The translations under genes and the position numbers were made by a program. The notes beneath the pieces were generated by a model that was not told the origin of the DNA, made no database searches, and saw only the letters and a list, made by a program, of their open reading frames with translations. Below, one piece after another: positions 8,753 to 36,286 of a DNA stretch of 64,000 nucleotides. Source of the DNA: Escherichia phage AV115. The number at the start of each line of letters is the position of its first letter. Positions within the stretch are counted from its first letter, which is position 1. The DNA lies in sequence record OR352945.1; one strand, given 5' to 3'.

Positions 8753-10321
8753 ATGACTACTATCAAAACTAAAGCTCAGCTCGTAGACAAATGGAAAGAA
8801 CTGCTGGAAGGTGAAGGCCTGCCGGAAATCGCTAATAGCAAGCAGGCTATTATCGCTAAAATCTTCGAAAACCAGGAAAAAGATTTCGAAGTATCCCCTG
8901 AATATAAAGACGAGAAAATCGCTCAGGCATTTGGTTCTTTCTTGACCGAAGCTGAAATTGGTGGTGACCACGGTTATAATGCTCAGAACATCGCAGCGGG
9001 TCAAACCTCTGGTGCAGTAACCCAAATTGGGCCGGCAGTTATGGGTATGGTTCGTCGTGCTATTCCTAATCTGATCGCTTTTGATATTTGTGGTGTTCAG
9101 CCTATGAACAGCCCGACCGGTCAGGTATTTGCTCTCCGTGCAGTATATGGTAAAGACCCTATCGCTGCTGGCGCTAAAGAAGCTTTCCATCCGATGTATG
9201 CCCCGGACGCGATGTTCTCTGGTCAGGGTGCTGCTAAGAAATTCCCAGCTCTGGCTGCTGACACTACTACTGTTGTAGGTGATATCTATACTCACTTCTT
9301 CCAAGAAACTGGTACTGTATATCTGCAAGCTTCTGCTGTCGTAACACTTGATTCTGGTGCAACTGATGCAGCTAAATTAGATGCAGAAGTTAAGAAACAA
9401 ATGGAAGCTGGTGCACTGGTAGAAATCGCTGAAGGTATGGCTACTTCTATCGCTGAACTCCAGGAAGGTTTCAACGGTTCTACCGATAACCCATGGAATG
9501 AAATGGGCTTCCGTATCGATAAACAAGTTATCGAAGCTAAATCTCGCCAGCTGAAAGCTGCTTACTCTATCGAATTAGCACAAGACCTCCGTGCAGTACA
9601 CGGTATGGATGCTGATGCTGAACTGAGCGGTATTCTGGCTACAGAAATTATGCTAGAAATCAACCGTGAAGTTGTTGATTGGATTAACTACTCAGCACAG
9701 GTTGGTAAATCTGGTATGACCCTGACTCCTGGTTCTAAAGCTGGTGTATTTGACTTCCAGGACCCGATTGATATCCGTGGTGCTCGTTGGGCCGGTGAAA
9801 GCTTTAAATCTCTGTTGTTCCAGATTGATAAAGAAGCAGTTGAAATTGCTCGTCAAACCGGTCGTGGTGAAGGTAACTTCATTATCGCTTCCCGTAACGT
9901 AGTTAACGTACTGGCTTCAGTTGATACTGGTATTTCTTACGCTGCACAGGGTCTGGCTTCCGGTTTTAATACCGACACTACTAAGTCTGTATTTGCCGGT
10001 GTACTTGGTGGTAAATACCGCGTATACATCGACCAGTATGCTAAACAGGATTATTTCACCGTTGGTTACAAAGGCGCTAACGAAATGGATGCAGGTATTT
10101 ACTATGCTCCTTACGTTGCACTTACCCCACTGCGTGGTTCCGATCCTAAGAACTTCCAGCCGGTAATGGGCTTTAAAACTCGTTACGGTATCGGTGTTAA
10201 CCCGTTTGCTGAAAGTTCCCTGCAGGCTCCAGGTGCTCGCATCCAGTCCGGTATGCCGTCTATCCTGAACAGCCTTGGTAAGAACGCTTACTTTAGACGC
10301 GTCTACGTTAAAGGAATTTAA
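8753..10321 (+). CDS. 23: major capsid protein
   Basis: 522 aa; near-identical to T4 gp23 throughout. Confidence 0.97.
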   Translation: MTTIKTKAQLVDKWKELLEGEGLPEIANSKQAIIAKIFENQEKDFEVSPEYKDEKIAQAFGSFLTEAEIGGDHGYNAQNIAAGQTSGAVTQIGPAVMGMVRRAIPNLIAFDICGVQPMNSPTGQVFALRAVYGKDPIAAGAKEAFHPMYAPDAMFSGQGAAKKFPALAADTTTVVGDIYTHFFQETGTVYLQASAVVTLDSGATDAAKLDAEVKKQMEAGALVEIAEGMATSIAELQEGFNGSTDNPWNEMGFRIDKQVIEAKSRQLKAAYSIELAQDLRAVHGMDADAELSGILATEIMLEINREVVDWINYSAQVGKSGMTLTPGSKAGVFDFQDPIDIRGARWAGESFKSLLFQIDKEAVEIARQTGRGEGNFIIASRNVVNVLASVDTGISYAAQGLASGFNTDTTKSVFAGVLGGKYRVYIDQYAKQDYFTVGYKGANEMDAGIYYAPYVALTPLRGSDPKNFQPVMGFKTRYGIGVNPFAESSLQAPGARIQSGMPSILNSLGKNAYFRRVYVKGI

Positions 10322-26678: not shown

Positions 26679-26708
26679 ATAGTATCACACATCCGTGTGC
26701 TTGTAAAC
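26679..26708 (-). promoter_or_regulatory. early sigma70-type promoter
   Basis: GTTTAC-N18-TACTAT on minus strand, conserved leader CAACAACATGAGGAAA before ATG 26649. Confidence 0.6.
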
Positions 26709-28795
26709 TATCCTTGGACAAATTTAAACGGAACTGATTCTAAATCCATTAAAGATGCTAACAATTTCAATCCTTTAGGAGCACTGTTTATTTCTACGAA
26801 TGAGGCAAAAGATACCGGCTCATCTGATTCAATTTCACCCGTCATAGCAACCACCTCGCCTGTTTCCATGAGAACATCACCATCATAAATGACAGCTTCG
26901 TCCAACTGGTCCGAGGACATGACTTCAGCTTGAATAAATTTAAGGTTGGATTCTAAACCTGCACCAGTGTCAGATGACGCATCTGTAATTTTATTTATCT
27001 GCAAGAGAATGCCTCTAGGCAAAATAATTTCTTGCTCATTAGGGTGATTACTCAACTGTCCTGGATAAACCACGTTAACTTTATGGGCGCCATCAATAGC
27101 CCATCCGACGTTAACACGGATTTGTTCTGGCGCATGCATAGCTGTTCTTACTTGACTAGGAGAAATGGTAACACCTTCGTCATTATTGTCAATGTTAAGC
27201 TCTTTGCGAACTTCTTCAGGAGCAAGTCCAAGGGCAACGTTCTCTTTAAACCCACCGAAAATAATAGGAGCTAGTGAAGTGGAAACATAGTTTCTGAAGT
27301 AGAATACCTTATTTTTAACCATTGCTTCGTAAATAGGCATTCTGATAGACTGAGCTCTATATAACGTTAGTCCTTCAGGTAAACGGTCTCCATTTAAAAA
27401 CGCCGAATCAAGACCATCAATAGCGCGTTTAACTTCATCTTCATCCGCAACATCGTAAAAATCTGGTTTATAACGACCTAACAACATATTATTGATATCG
27501 GTATACGCAGAAGAGGCATATTCACGAATAGCTCGTTTTTCAGCAACAGAGTATTGTTTAGGGTCACGATTCATTGTTATATTAAAGGTGCCTCTAGCCG
27601 ATTCTCGTGCATAAGTATACATCACATTAGACAAGAACGCTGATTTACGTTGTTTCCAAGTTTTTTCAGATACTTCAGCTAAAACGTCGTCAGCCAGTTG
27701 GAAATTATCTCGTCTAAAATCTTCAAACCATTCGTCTCTAATAGAGTCTGCAATTTCATTTGCAGCTTCAACAAAAGCAGCTAATGCTTTAACAGATGTT
27801 GTTTTTTCGGTTTTAATTTTCTTAGCAAACTTTTCTAAAGTTGGCTTAATAACACTACCATAAGAAACTTCATCAGCAAATCTAAAGGATTCATCAATAC
27901 GATTATAAATCTTATTTTCGATATCAGCAACTAAAGTGCCTTTTGCTGTGGACGATGCTTGGGCTAGTACGATTTCATATGCTTCAGGAAGTAATTCGGC
28001 CGTAGCCGGGCCACTAACTTCTTTAGCAGAATTTTCGTATTTCTGGAATAACTCACCTTCTTGGCGGTCAGCTTCTAAAGATTGGCTTGCGGCAATAGCA
28101 CGACGAGAAATTTTAGTACGAGCAATAACAGGCTTATCTTTACGTTTTTCTTCTACAGCAGCAATAGAACCAGCGATAGCCGTTTCTTTGGTGACTTTTT
28201 CGCCGGTCTTTTTACTCACATAAACTTCGCCAACATCAGAATCTACTTTCGTGTACAACTCTGTGTTAATGTTAGGGATGCCTTTAATATCTTCAATGTT
28301 GGCATTTTTACGAACCATCATCACATAGGTGTGTTTACCTGTGAATTGATACATTGCCGACAATACTTTAAAACGACCAGCGGTTTTAGTAGAAACTAAA
28401 CGAGCAAGAAGAGTTTGAAGCTGCTGTCCGCGTCCTTTCAATTTCTTGGTAGGGAATCGGAACAGAACTGCATCCATACGAAGAGCTTTAACCTGTTCAT
28501 ATACTGTATTGAAAATAGTGTTGATTGCATCAATAGGAGCAGGACCAAGGCCATTTTTCAATTCAGCGAGATTACCCTTTTCAGACAGACTCATAATAAC
28601 AACATGAGCGTATTTGTCGCCAAGTTTAACTTGTTTTACAGCATCGCCTTCAGAAAGGTAAGAGAATAAGCGAACTACGATGTTTGTATCGATATCACCA
28701 ATTTTCCAGACTTGTGGAACTTTAGCTTTAGGGTTCAAATTGACGACAGGAAGACTGCCTTCAGATTCAAACACTTCGTTTATTTGTTCAGACAT
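26708..28795 (-). CDS. alt: ADP-ribosyltransferase Alt
   Basis: 695 aa; position between gene 54 and gene 30 and size match T4 Alt. Confidence 0.85.
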   Translation of the reverse strand: MSEQINEVFESEGSLPVVNLNPKAKVPQVWKIGDIDTNIVVRLFSYLSEGDAVKQVKLGDKYAHVVIMSLSEKGNLAELKNGLGPAPIDAINTIFNTVYEQVKALRMDAVLFRFPTKKLKGRGQQLQTLLARLVSTKTAGRFKVLSAMYQFTGKHTYVMMVRKNANIEDIKGIPNINTELYTKVDSDVGEVYVSKKTGEKVTKETAIAGSIAAVEEKRKDKPVIARTKISRRAIAASQSLEADRQEGELFQKYENSAKEVSGPATAELLPEAYEIVLAQASSTAKGTLVADIENKIYNRIDESFRFADEVSYGSVIKPTLEKFAKKIKTEKTTSVKALAAFVEAANEIADSIRDEWFEDFRRDNFQLADDVLAEVSEKTWKQRKSAFLSNVMYTYARESARGTFNITMNRDPKQYSVAEKRAIREYASSAYTDINNMLLGRYKPDFYDVADEDEVKRAIDGLDSAFLNGDRLPEGLTLYRAQSIRMPIYEAMVKNKVFYFRNYVSTSLAPIIFGGFKENVALGLAPEEVRKELNIDNNDEGVTISPSQVRTAMHAPEQIRVNVGWAIDGAHKVNVVYPGQLSNHPNEQEIILPRGILLQINKITDASSDTGAGLESNLKFIQAEVMSSDQLDEAVIYDGDVLMETGEVVAMTGEIESDEPVSFASFVEINSAPKGLKLLASLMDLESVPFKFVQG

Positions 28796-30807: not shown

Positions 30808-31623
30808 TTAACAATTTATAGACCAAGTCCATTTAGACGAATCTAAAGGAAAGTTTTGAATCGTCCACCATGGCTGCATATTGGTTGGTCCTGGGGTTCG
30901 CCAGGTATACGGATTCGACGGACCGCCAATTTGATTAGGCCATGCACCTGGACTTGTTGCACCAGATTCTTTAAGCAAATCCGCCAATCGTTTTAAAAGG
31001 TCTTCACGATCTGAATCTGAATTATGCTCGGGTGGAACCAAACGAGATTCAATATCATCCCACGTGTGTACACGTTGTGCAGTGCGAGGAATATCATCAC
31101 GTTCACCACGAGCCAACCAATAAATCGGTACATTAAGAATTTCTGCCGCATGGTCACAATGATGAGCTAAATCGTCAACGTAACAAATCACGTTATATTT
31201 TGTTTTAGCTAGTTCAAATAATTGTTCCTTTGACGAATCATGACCACACATCATTACTTCAGAAAAAGCGCCTGGGAACAAAGCATTCAAATTAAATTGT
31301 CTATTCAATCGAGCATCAATTGAATCACCTAGCGCCGTCACGGCTACAAAATTATAGTCTTCTTTTAGTTTATTGATAACTCGAAGAGCATCCGAATAAG
31401 GCGCTAAGTAACGAATAAAATCAGAGCGATTATATTTTTCTATTAATTGTTTACCAAGGTTATCGTCGGTATTGAATAGTTTACCAGGAGAAATAAATTT
31501 TTCGTCCTGGATCATTTTTAAAATATGTTCTAATGGAAGATTATATTTTTGGGCAAAATAAGGAAGTCCAGATTGCCAGCTTAAACATACACCATCAATA
31601 TCAGTCAAAATAGTAGGCTTCAT
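30808..31623 (-). CDS. hypothetical protein with N-terminal DxDGV motif (HAD-like?)
   Basis: 271 aa; TDIDGV near N-terminus resembles HAD motif I; 30.2 position. Confidence 0.5.
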   Translation of the reverse strand: MKPTILTDIDGVCLSWQSGLPYFAQKYNLPLEHILKMIQDEKFISPGKLFNTDDNLGKQLIEKYNRSDFIRYLAPYSDALRVINKLKEDYNFVAVTALGDSIDARLNRQFNLNALFPGAFSEVMMCGHDSSKEQLFELAKTKYNVICYVDDLAHHCDHAAEILNVPIYWLARGERDDIPRTAQRVHTWDDIESRLVPPEHNSDSDREDLLKRLADLLKESGATSPGAWPNQIGGPSNPYTWRTPGPTNMQPWWTIQNFPLDSSKWTWSINC

Positions 31624-32087
31624 AAAGAGTCTCTTAATAGGTTTAACACATCAATAAATTCAGCTTCGGTTAGTATTGTATCATCTTTTGTTAGACCACT
31701 AGCCATGCTGTGCTTCAAAATTTTTCCTTTAGAGGCTTGTAAGGCATCACGAAACCCCTTGTTTTGGATCGCTGCTTCAAAATATGCATTTGTATATAAT
31801 TCTTTCCACGCTTCAGAGTATCTTGAAAATGGAACTCCTAACCAGAAGAGAGTCCCATGGTCCTGAGCTCTTGCATAAGACCTTCCAGCTTGCTGTGCAG
31901 CCAGTCCTGACAGCCCAAATATACGTTTTTGTTGTTCAACATTTCTCACCTTACATCCTTGGAGAAATCCTTCAAGACCTCCGAATTGAATATCGTCCAT
32001 AACGAAAGGCCACCGGGCAAAATTACTTAATGCACATGACGGCCACTTAAAATTGCTTCTTATTTCTAATTCAGACATCTTTAACAC
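31620..32087 (-). CDS. YbiA/NADAR (DUF1768)-like protein
   Basis: 155 aa; LSNFARWPF resembles YbiA FSNFAAWPI signature. Confidence 0.55.
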   Translation of the reverse strand: MLKMSELEIRSNFKWPSCALSNFARWPFVMDDIQFGGLEGFLQGCKVRNVEQQKRIFGLSGLAAQQAGRSYARAQDHGTLFWLGVPFSRYSEAWKELYTNAYFEAAIQNKGFRDALQASKGKILKHSMASGLTKDDTILTEAEFIDVLNLLRDSL

Positions 32088-32289
32088 TTATAATTTCAAT
32101 ATCAGCCCAATGACCGTATCCAGGTATACGGTCTTCGATAGATAAATTTCCGTCATTTTTAGGCATTTTAATTGACGTAACGTATGGTTCTAGACGGTTT
32201 TCTGCATAATACGGAAAAACGTCTGTTACACGATAAGTAACTTCGATCATTTCTGTACCCAACAATTTCTGAATTAATTTCTTTAACAT
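32071..32289 (-). CDS. hypothetical protein
   Basis: 72 aa ORF, co-oriented in 30.x cluster. Confidence 0.4.
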   Translation of the reverse strand: MLKKLIQKLLGTEMIEVTYRVTDVFPYYAENRLEPYVTSIKMPKNDGNLSIEDRIPGYGHWADIEIISVKDV

Positions 32290-34414: not shown

Positions 34415-34723
34415 TTACATAAGAAGCAAACGTTCTACCGGAGTACCATCAACCGAAATTACTTTATCAAGGCGGAAAGAACGCCACTGACCTAACTCGG
34501 TATCGAATGCTCGAACTGATTCACGAGGTTCAGAACGAACTTCTGTTGATGGGTTACTATTTTCATATTTGACTTCAAGTTCGTCGCGGGAAGCAAACAT
34601 CGTACGAACATCACCGTTAGCCTTTTCAAATACAACACAATGAACGCCTACAGACAGAATAGTTTTAATACGTTCACGAAGAACCATAGTTTCTTGTTCA
34701 GTTAAAATCATATTATTCACCAC
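34415..34723 (-). CDS. hypothetical protein
   Basis: 102 aa ORF between cd and gene 31. Confidence 0.45.
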   Translation of the reverse strand: MVNNMILTEQETMVLRERIKTILSVGVHCVVFEKANGDVRTMFASRDELEVKYENSNPSTEVRSEPRESVRAFDTELGQWRSFRLDKVISVDGTPVERLLLM

Positions 34724-35294
34724 AAAAGTTTCGAATTTGTTCCCAATTCAGAGAACGAAGATTATTACGAGAGTACTGAATTACTTCAATACCGGCTTTT
34801 TTTAGAATGTCTGCCCAATTTTCAGGAGATCGGTCATATAATTCTGCATATACAACCTTTTTAATACCTGACTGTGTAATAGCTTTAGTGCAATCAGGAC
34901 ATGGAGAAAGCGTCGTATACAACGTAGCACCTTCAATAGAATTACCTTTACGAGCTGCAAACAAAATTGCATTCAATTCCGCATGGATTTCGTTATTAGC
35001 AGACCATGCACTATGAGCGGCCCGATGTTCTTTAGCCAAAACAAAATTATCCACCCGTCCAAATGCTGTAGTGCCTTCTTTATGCCCAGCAACGATGACC
35101 GGGCTTGGTTTATTCTTCAACCAACCATTTTCGGATGCATGTTCGCAACAGTTTGTACCACCTGAAGGAGAGCCATTATAACCTGTAGAAATAATGCGTC
35201 CATCTTTTTCAATGACGGCGCCAACTTTCCATGAACAACATTTTGATTCTTGAGAAATCAGATAAGCAATCTGAAGATATGTGCTAGCTTTCAT
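34713..35294 (-). CDS. cd: dCMP deaminase
   Basis: 193 aa; HAELNAI and PCPDC zinc-binding motifs. Confidence 0.95.
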   Translation of the reverse strand: MKASTYLQIAYLISQESKCCSWKVGAVIEKDGRIISTGYNGSPSGGTNCCEHASENGWLKNKPSPVIVAGHKEGTTAFGRVDNFVLAKEHRAAHSAWSANNEIHAELNAILFAARKGNSIEGATLYTTLSPCPDCTKAITQSGIKKVVYAELYDRSPENWADILKKAGIEVIQYSRNNLRSLNWEQIRNFCGE

Positions 35295-36286
35295 TATTGA
35301 ACCTTATTAATATAAGTTAACAGCTCTTTAGTTTGTTCCCAACTGATGCACGCATCGGTAATGGAAACGCCATAGGACATATTATCAGAAATTTTTTGAT
35401 TTCCTTCATGTAGGAATGATTCTATCATAATTCCTTTGACCAAATCATTAGCTGCTAAATTTTTACCAATACCAATTTGATTGCTATAATGCCCATCAGC
35501 GTTTGCATGGCTACAGTCAACCATTACATAATGATTCAGACCTACTGCCCTTGCTTTGTTAGAAGCTTCTTGAATATCAGAAGAATGATAGTTCGGGCCG
35601 TTGGTCCCGCCACGCAATACGATATGCGTATTCTGATTACCTTCAGCTTCAACAATGCCTACAGTACCATCGACGTCCATACCCATATACCGATGAGGCC
35701 AGGCGGCACTATACATCGCGTCTGTAGCTACTTTAATAGAACCATTGGTTGCGTTCTTGAAGCCTACGCACATCGGTAGACCTGAAGCAATTTCACGATG
35801 TGTCTGACTTTCAGTCGTACGGGCGCCAATAGCAACCCATGAGAAAATACCAGAAAGATACTTAATCGTGAATGGGTCTAATACTTCAGTTGCTAATGGA
35901 AGTCCCATACGTAGAAGTTTACGACACAATGTTCGTGCAACTATAAGACCGTGGTTCATATCAAAACTTCCGTCAAGATATGGATCATTTACAAGACCTT
36001 TCCAACCTACGGTAGTTCGAGGCTTTTCAAAATAAACGCGCATCACTAACAGAACATTAGGAAGACGAGTTTGAAGTTCAGCCAGACGTTTGCCGTATTC
36101 AACAGCAGCAATAGGGTCATGAATTGAACAAGGACCTACAACAATAAGTTTGCGTGGGTCTTCACCGTTCATAATCGAATTAACTTGTTCGCGATGAGAA
36201 GCCACTTGTGATGCGTAAGCTTCCGACAAAGGAATAATCTCAGCCAGTTCTTTTGGAGAAATAAGTTTTCCGACGACAGGTAACAT
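35294..36286 (-). CDS. 3-deoxy-D-arabino-heptulosonate 7-phosphate (DAHP) synthase, class I
   Basis: 330 aa; full-length similarity to AroG/AroF (GPCSIHD, VYFEKPRTTVGWKGL, IGARTTESQ, KPGxxD motifs); stop overlaps cd start. Confidence 0.88.
   Translation of the reverse strand: MLPVVGKLISPKELAEIIPLSEAYASQVASHREQVNSIMNGEDPRKLIVVGPCSIHDPIAAVEYGKRLAELQTRLPNVLLVMRVYFEKPRTTVGWKGLVNDPYLDGSFDMNHGLIVARTLCRKLLRMGLPLATEVLDPFTIKYLSGIFSWVAIGARTTESQTHREIASGLPMCVGFKNATNGSIKVATDAMYSAAWPHRYMGMDVDGTVGIVEAEGNQNTHIVLRGGTNGPNYHSSDIQEASNKARAVGLNHYVMVDCSHANADGHYSNQIGIGKNLAANDLVKGIMIESFLHEGNQKISDNMSYGVSITDACISWEQTKELLTYINKVQ

Follow-up and report, generated by a model that had tools for sequence, protein, structure and literature searches.

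The window analysed here, a stretch of 64,000 nucleotides from Escherichia phage AV115 (OR352945.1), contains a cluster of genes arranged in the same order as in phage T4: 30.7, 30.6, 30.5, 30.4, 30.3, 30.2, 30.1, the ligase gene (30), alt.1 and alt. The features of interest are listed in Table 1, where the homolog of gene 30.3 appears under the name adfN. Over the 2.7 kb around this open reading frame (ORF), two Escherichia phages, AV116 and AV118, share 99.9% identity with the window. AV116 is classified in GenBank as a Mosigvirus, the genus of RB69, and the window phage is a Mosigvirus too, not a Tequatrovirus. Conservation with respect to T4 is uneven along the cluster. Between 30529 and 32485, the identity is 94% for gp30.3, 70% for gp30.2, 67% for gp30.5, 58% for gp30.1 and 50% for gp30.4, and it is 96% for gp30.9. 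Such unevenness could stem from strong selection on adfN or from a recent exchange between genera. No match to T4 genes 30.8, 31.2 and cd.1 was found in the window. Homologs of AdfA (T4 61.2), another anti-DarT factor, and of ModB were likewise looked for and not found, since the corresponding part of the genome lies outside it.

Table 1. Location of adfN, of the codons of its conserved residues and of other features in the window (coordinates of adfN include the stop codon).
Feature	Position	Strand	Description
alt	26708..28795	-	695 aa; ADP-ribosyltransferase exoenzyme domain (Pfam PF03496, E = 6e-28)
gene 30.2 homolog	30808..31623	-	271 aa; HAD-phosphatase-like motifs
adfN (T4 gene 30.3 ortholog)	31620..32078	-	152 aa; putative phage-type NADAR DNA ADP-ribosylglycohydrolase
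C-terminal helix codons (residues 138-151 in model)	31626..31667	-	intact; lost in RB69
His123 codon, end of last beta strand	31710..31712	-	invariant
window counterpart of T4 ORF 30.3'	31718..31942	-	stopped after 34 codons
Lys43 codon, phosphate-coordinating lysine	31950..31952	-	invariant; same in T4; equivalent to K43 of T4, K50 of PnNADAR and K95 of C7 NADAR
Glu36 codon, catalytic glutamate	31971..31973	-	invariant; same in T4; equivalent to E36 of T4 AdfN, E43 of PnNADAR and E88 of E. coli C7 NADAR
L17-S18-N19-F20 codons (LSNF motif)	32019..32030	-	invariant in 62 homologs; align to FSNF of YbiA
gene 30.4 homolog	32071..32289	-	72 aa; PHROG 2042
gene 31.1 homolog	34415..34723	-	WYL_2 Sm-like SH3 barrel family (PF10902, E = 4.5e-10)
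DAHP synthase gene	35294..36286	-	330 aa; class I (PF00793, E = 4e-75)

Two other genes of the window merit a brief mention. The homolog of gene 31.1 belongs by its Pfam match to an Sm-like family, and its GenBank label in AV116 ('tail fibers protein') looks like an annotation error. Directly downstream of the dCMP deaminase gene lies a gene for a DAHP synthase, an auxiliary gene of the aromatic-amino-acid pathway, at a site that holds only small cd.x genes in T4 and RB69. Homologs occur in 212 phage records, including T4-like phages of Escherichia, Klebsiella, Serratia, Proteus and Acinetobacter, and no role of this enzyme for the phage was found stated in the literature searched.

In the list of ORFs, adfN is part of a minus-strand frame running from 32087 to 31620 that encodes 155 aa when read from a GTG codon. 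An earlier sequence-only reading of the window had reported this ORF with its correct coordinates and with that length, leaving out the strand, but the most likely true start codon is an ATG at 32078, yielding a product of 152 aa. This ATG is favoured by the annotated start of the T4 gene and by the lack of conservation in the three extra codons (GCA in T4 versus GTG in the window). Gene packing at adfN is tight, as is typical of the cluster: the ATG falls inside the final codons of the 30.4 homolog, whose TGA occupies 32071-32073, and the adfN TGA overlaps the ATG of the 30.2 homolog as ATGA. A scan for promoters and terminators around adfN returned sites no more numerous than in shuffled sequence, and the gene appears to be read within a long minus-strand cluster. 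The choice of start codon also affects public records. Positions 9121..9501 of AV116 (OR352946.1), equivalent to 31620..32000 of the window, are annotated in GenBank as a 126-aa hypothetical protein that begins at an internal Met and from which the SNF region has been removed. Since AV116 and the window give the same 152-aa translation (100% identity), the shorter product is a start-codon mis-annotation, and several other records carry comparably shortened or split adfN products. T4 also has an internal out-of-frame ORF within gene 30.3, designated 30.3' (75 aa); the stop that interrupts its counterpart in the window argues against 30.3' as a conserved protein-coding gene.

The window protein matches Pfam PF08010 (Phage_30_3) over the complete model (positions 1-138 of 138; E = 2.8e-66, 222 bits versus a cut-off of 36), as well as PHROG 652. 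Together with the presence of homologs in 1510 phage records and with a dN/dS of 0.086 against T4 at 90.4% nucleotide identity, which denotes purifying selection, the Pfam match shows that this is no chance ORF. The link to the NADAR superfamily is indirect, because the Pfam NADAR model (PF08719) does not pick up the window protein at E <= 1, and the connection runs through the fold, the family profile and intermediate sequences. Queried alone against the PDB, the window protein returned nothing at E <= 10, and no match was obtained in NCBIfam or PADLOC. The family alignment and profile comprise 62 homologs, down to 34% identity, 24 of which match PF08719 individually (best E = 1.5e-7). Searched against PDB sequences, the profile has E. 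coli YbiA (2b3w) as its sole match, with E = 0.0048 over the SNF...E..Q..K block, and the alignment sets CALSNFARWPFVMDD, contained in the ORF, against FSNFAAWPIKVDG of YbiA. This alignment bears out the YbiA-like SNFA.WP signature that the sequence-only reading had singled out. Of the checks proposed there, the Pfam NADAR profile matches those 24 of the 62 homologs and not the window protein itself, and the comparison of structures agrees with the proposal: the AF2 model (pLDDT 91.7, pTM 0.88) predicts the YbiA-type alpha+beta fold, a helical core flanked by small beta hairpins, by which the NADAR superfamily is recognised. The window protein is a stand-alone NADAR-fold enzyme with nothing beyond the core domain.

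The E-x(3)-Q-x(2)-K block is present in the window protein as part of LSNF...LEGFLQGCK, aligned to the corresponding block of YbiA. Residues S18, N19, F20, E36, Q40, K43 and H123 are invariant across the 62 homologs (numbering from the ATG, which equals T4 numbering). The glutamate and the lysine are the catalytic and phosphate-binding residues of NADARs, as identified for E43/K50 of PnNADAR and E88/K95 of C7 NADAR (PMC11543638), the phosphate-coordinating role of the lysine being described also in PMC11825919. In the T4 protein, the E36A variant rescued RB69 on DarTG1 cells only in part and served as the inactive control in dot blots (PMC11825919). H123, within ILKHS, immediately follows the final strand of the model (residues 120-122). 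The residue at this last-strand position varies by family: YbiA-type proteins have Glu, those of the DarG1/BC4488 type Asp and phage gp30.3 proteins His (PMC11125620; PMC11543638). Hence, His123 identifies the window protein as a phage-type NADAR, a member of neither the YbiA nor the DarG1 family.

Orthology to T4 gene 30.3 is apparent from both sequence and position. The two proteins align without gaps and share 143 of 152 residues (94%), none of the nine substitutions falls at an invariant position, and adfN sits between the 30.4 and 30.2 homologs, as in T4. What is established for the window allele is which gene it is, how its product folds and that the catalytic residues are intact. The T4 protein has been renamed AdfN (anti-DarT factor NADAR) by Johannesman et al. 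(2025), who mapped resistance to DarTG1 to the 3' part of 30.3 through recombination between T2 or T4 and RB69 (PMC11825919). Deletion of adfN leaves T4 and T2 unable to form plaques on DarTG1 cells, its expression rescues RB69 on those cells, and the purified T4 protein, but not E36A, strips ADP-ribose from DNA modified by DarT1; binding of AdfN to DarT1 was not detected in a bacterial two-hybrid assay (PMC11825919). Working in vitro, an independent group reported that T4 gp30.3 hydrolyses guanine-ADPr and not thymine-ADPr (PMC11125620), and later that it does not hydrolyse cytidine-ADPr (PMC12945103). In a transposon screen of T4, insertions in 30.3 disappeared with DarTG1 and not without it (bioRxiv 10.1101/2025.11.20.689424), and no growth defect has been reported for the loss of adfN on hosts lacking DarTG1 (PMC11825919; bioRxiv 10.1101/2025.11.20.689424).

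Given this body of work, it is highly probable that the gene in the window is adfN, the ortholog of T4 30.3, and that it encodes a NADAR enzyme reversing the DarT1-dependent ADP-ribosylation of guanines in phage DNA. Upon infection of an E. coli cell carrying DarTG1, the DarT1 toxin would place ADP-ribose on guanines of the phage DNA and block its replication. AdfN would then cut the guanine-ADP-ribose bond by means of Glu36, Lys43 and His123, restoring the DNA and allowing the phage to replicate. It would act, in other words, as an orphan copy of the antitoxin's chemistry and not as an inhibitor that binds the toxin. The activity of the window allele and its role against DarTG1 are presumably those of the 94%-identical T4 protein on which the experiments were done. 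The sequence-only reading had put forward the countering of a host ADP-ribosylating toxin as an inference. The experiments on T4 AdfN bear this proposal out, and the question is in fact already answered in print (PMC11825919; PMC11125620; bioRxiv 10.1101/2025.11.20.689424). The rescue of toxicity that was suggested as its check would, on the other hand, have given a false negative, since in two laboratories T4 AdfN failed to protect uninfected cells from DarT1 (PMC11825919; PMC11125620).

Part of the RB69 story bears directly on the window phage. RB69 is sensitive to DarTG1, and its 30.3 gene carries a single T insertion that brings in a stop at once and costs the protein its last 15 residues; T4 AdfN truncated at the same point shows reduced activity (PMC11825919). 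In a three-way DNA alignment of the window, T4 and RB69, the extra T is found in RB69 alone, after the site equivalent to position 31668 of the window, where the frame stays open to residue 152 and the last 27 residues are the same as in T4. A 70-base probe spanning the RB69 site matched 608 phage records. Among the matches listed, it was exact only in the two RB69 records, and the others span 69 bases, that is, they do not have the extra T. Within those matches the insertion is hence confined to RB69, which establishes the intact allele as the norm and makes the frameshift look peculiar to that one isolate. As the insertion is absent from the window, we infer that the window phage should act like T4 and T2, which are resistant to DarTG1, and unlike RB69. 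This leads to the prediction that a Mosigvirus such as that of the window resists DarTG1, contrary to RB69, the type phage of its genus.

The hydrolysis of any DNA bearing guanine-ADPr does not seem to be the whole story, though. Besides its failure in uninfected cells, T4 AdfN gives little rescue of T5 and Bas25, two unrelated phages (PMC11825919; PMC11125620). This weak action outside T-even infection indicates that a T-even-specific requirement exists, and a further T-even factor has been proposed (PMC11825919). That T4-type AdfN needs a phage-encoded partner, of which the HAD-phosphatase-like gp30.2 would be one candidate, is nonetheless unlikely. At six Straboviridae loci from five genera (T4, RB69, AV116, Lazarusvirus, Slopekvirus and Chrysonvirus), a homolog of 30.2 follows that of 30.3 downstream, no more than 1 kb away, but none was found within 4 kb of the gp30.3 homologs in Krischvirus and in Vibrio, Shewanella and Ralstonia phages. 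The transposon-screen preprint names 30.3 as the only DarTG1 hit and does not mention 30.2 (bioRxiv 10.1101/2025.11.20.689424). The absence near gp30.3 in these four phages and the screen naming only 30.3 both argue against gp30.2 as an obligate partner, and the linkage looks instead like inherited gene order.

As regards gp30.2 itself, residues D8, D10, T96, K132, K142, D150 and D151 are invariant among five homologs, and the C-terminal tail, rich in Pro and Trp, is poorly conserved. We take D8, D10, T96, K132/K142 and D150-D151 to resemble the four HAD-phosphatase motifs. The gp30.2 homolog has no Pfam match, the sole PDB match of its profile is a 5'(3')-deoxyribonucleotidase at a non-significant E = 0.21, and its single-sequence AlphaFold model has a pLDDT of 37.9. 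Judging by these motifs, gp30.2 may be an unrecognised phage nucleotidase.

The location of adfN might point to a different role, in which the enzyme would mainly serve the phage's own ADP-ribosylation programme by removing or tuning the ADP-ribose set by Alt (and ModA/ModB) on host proteins or RNA. The sequence-only reading had entertained this role on account of the distance to alt, given as about 3 kb and amounting in fact to 2.8 kb, a proximity for which such a role would account. An alt gene with an ADP-ribosyltransferase domain is indeed present, and the alt, ligase and 30.x genes also occur together in Acinetobacter and Aeromonas relatives. Moreover, according to a comparative study, T4-like phages express their NADARs early, together with ADP-ribosyltransferases (PMC9503650), and the literature searched yielded no assay in which a phage NADAR was given protein with arginine-linked ADP-ribose. 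Nonetheless, every NADAR substrate demonstrated so far, including that of T4 gp30.3, is a guanine of DNA or RNA, with no cleavage of thymine or cytidine adducts (PMC11125620; PMC12945103), and the loss of adfN goes without a reported growth defect where the host lacks DarTG1. In Vibrio, Shewanella and Ralstonia phages, gp30.3 homologs lie far from any alt gene, and the alt genes at the loci of the Acinetobacter and Aeromonas relatives are carried by the other strand. The closeness of adfN and alt therefore reflects a shared T4-type gene order and not a functional pairing; the proposed modulation of Alt-family modifications finds no support, and we regard it as very improbable. Much the same can be said of the idea that AdfN mainly destroys small soluble ADP-ribose derivatives, such as immune signals or by-products of RNA repair, and that DNA repair is not its chief activity. 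This prediction from comparative genomics predates the assays of phage NADARs (PMC9503650). In its favour, YbiA-type NADARs have N-glycosidase activity on small intermediates of the riboflavin pathway (cited in PMC9503650 and PMC12945103), and a further substrate would be compatible with T4 AdfN not working as an antitoxin where there is no infection (PMC11825919). Yet the genetics are specific: a phenotype arises only against DarTG1, whose toxin modifies DNA, and AdfN in purified form clears ADP-ribose from DNA directly (PMC11825919). Furthermore, the Glu position of YbiA is occupied by His in the window protein, so YbiA chemistry cannot simply be assumed for AdfN. Small molecules as its main target are very improbable.

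Finally, adfN might have decayed in the lineage of the window phage, as in RB69, leaving the phage sensitive to DarTG1 or reliant on AdfA. Mosigvirus is the genus to which RB69, with its truncated allele, belongs, and the nearly identical AV116 is annotated with the 126-aa product only. But the latter is a matter of start-codon choice, the full 152-aa frame is open in the window, free of the RB69 insertion and with no catalytic residue or part of the C-terminal helix missing, and the low dN/dS speaks of a gene under constraint. A decayed allele is already contradicted by the sequence as we read it, and its probability is close to negligible. The preferred reading, that of an ordinary, intact adfN reversing DarT1 modification of guanines, is a finding already known, and the outcomes for the window leave current understanding unchanged. 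What they do allow is to assign the name adfN with confidence, where near-identical GenBank records say "hypothetical protein" or shorten the start.

Among known systems, T4 AdfN is the closest to the window protein, with the same neighbours, the same E36, K43 and H123 and an equally intact C-terminal helix. The differences lie in the nine substitutions, in the genus (Tequatrovirus for T4, Mosigvirus for the window phage) and in the interruption of 30.3'. The gp30.3 of RB69, from the same genus as the window phage, is nearly identical up to residue 137 and is flanked by a gp30.2 with 99% identity; it departs from the window protein in its T insertion and in the loss of the last 15 residues. 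E. coli YbiA (2b3w; NADAR/DUF1768, PF08719) stands further apart. It belongs to a host operon controlled by LexA and has been tied to riboflavin intermediates and swarming (PMC11125620; PMC12945103), and it has Glu where the window protein has His. Like T4 AdfN, it confers no protection against DarT1 in vivo (PMC11125620). The window protein is thus YbiA-like in its fold, but it lies outside the YbiA family in the sense of de Souza and Aravind.

The DarG1 NADARs of the BC4488 family, represented by those of G. lovleyi (8bat) and E. coli C7, have Asp in place of His123, and the 152-aa core domain of the window protein compares with 219 aa in the G. lovleyi NADAR (PMC12945103); T4 AdfN, for its part, is no substitute for DarG1 in uninfected cells (PMC11825919). 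No darT was found beside adfN, as the adjacent 30.4 and 30.2 homologs have no DarT domain and PADLOC models gave no match; the only ADP-ribosyltransferase nearby is Alt, of the PF03496 exoenzyme type. AdfN provides a clear case of a phage adopting the enzymatic chemistry of an antitoxin to reverse a DNA-modifying defence. AdfN-Bas32 and AdfN-Bas60, from T5-like and Vequintavirinae phages, are also orphan phage NADARs, specific for guanine and able to counter DarTG1 (PMC11825919). They fall in other NADAR clades and were acquired independently, and, as opposed to T4-type AdfN, they do not depend on T-even infection and neutralise DarT1 even where no phage is present.
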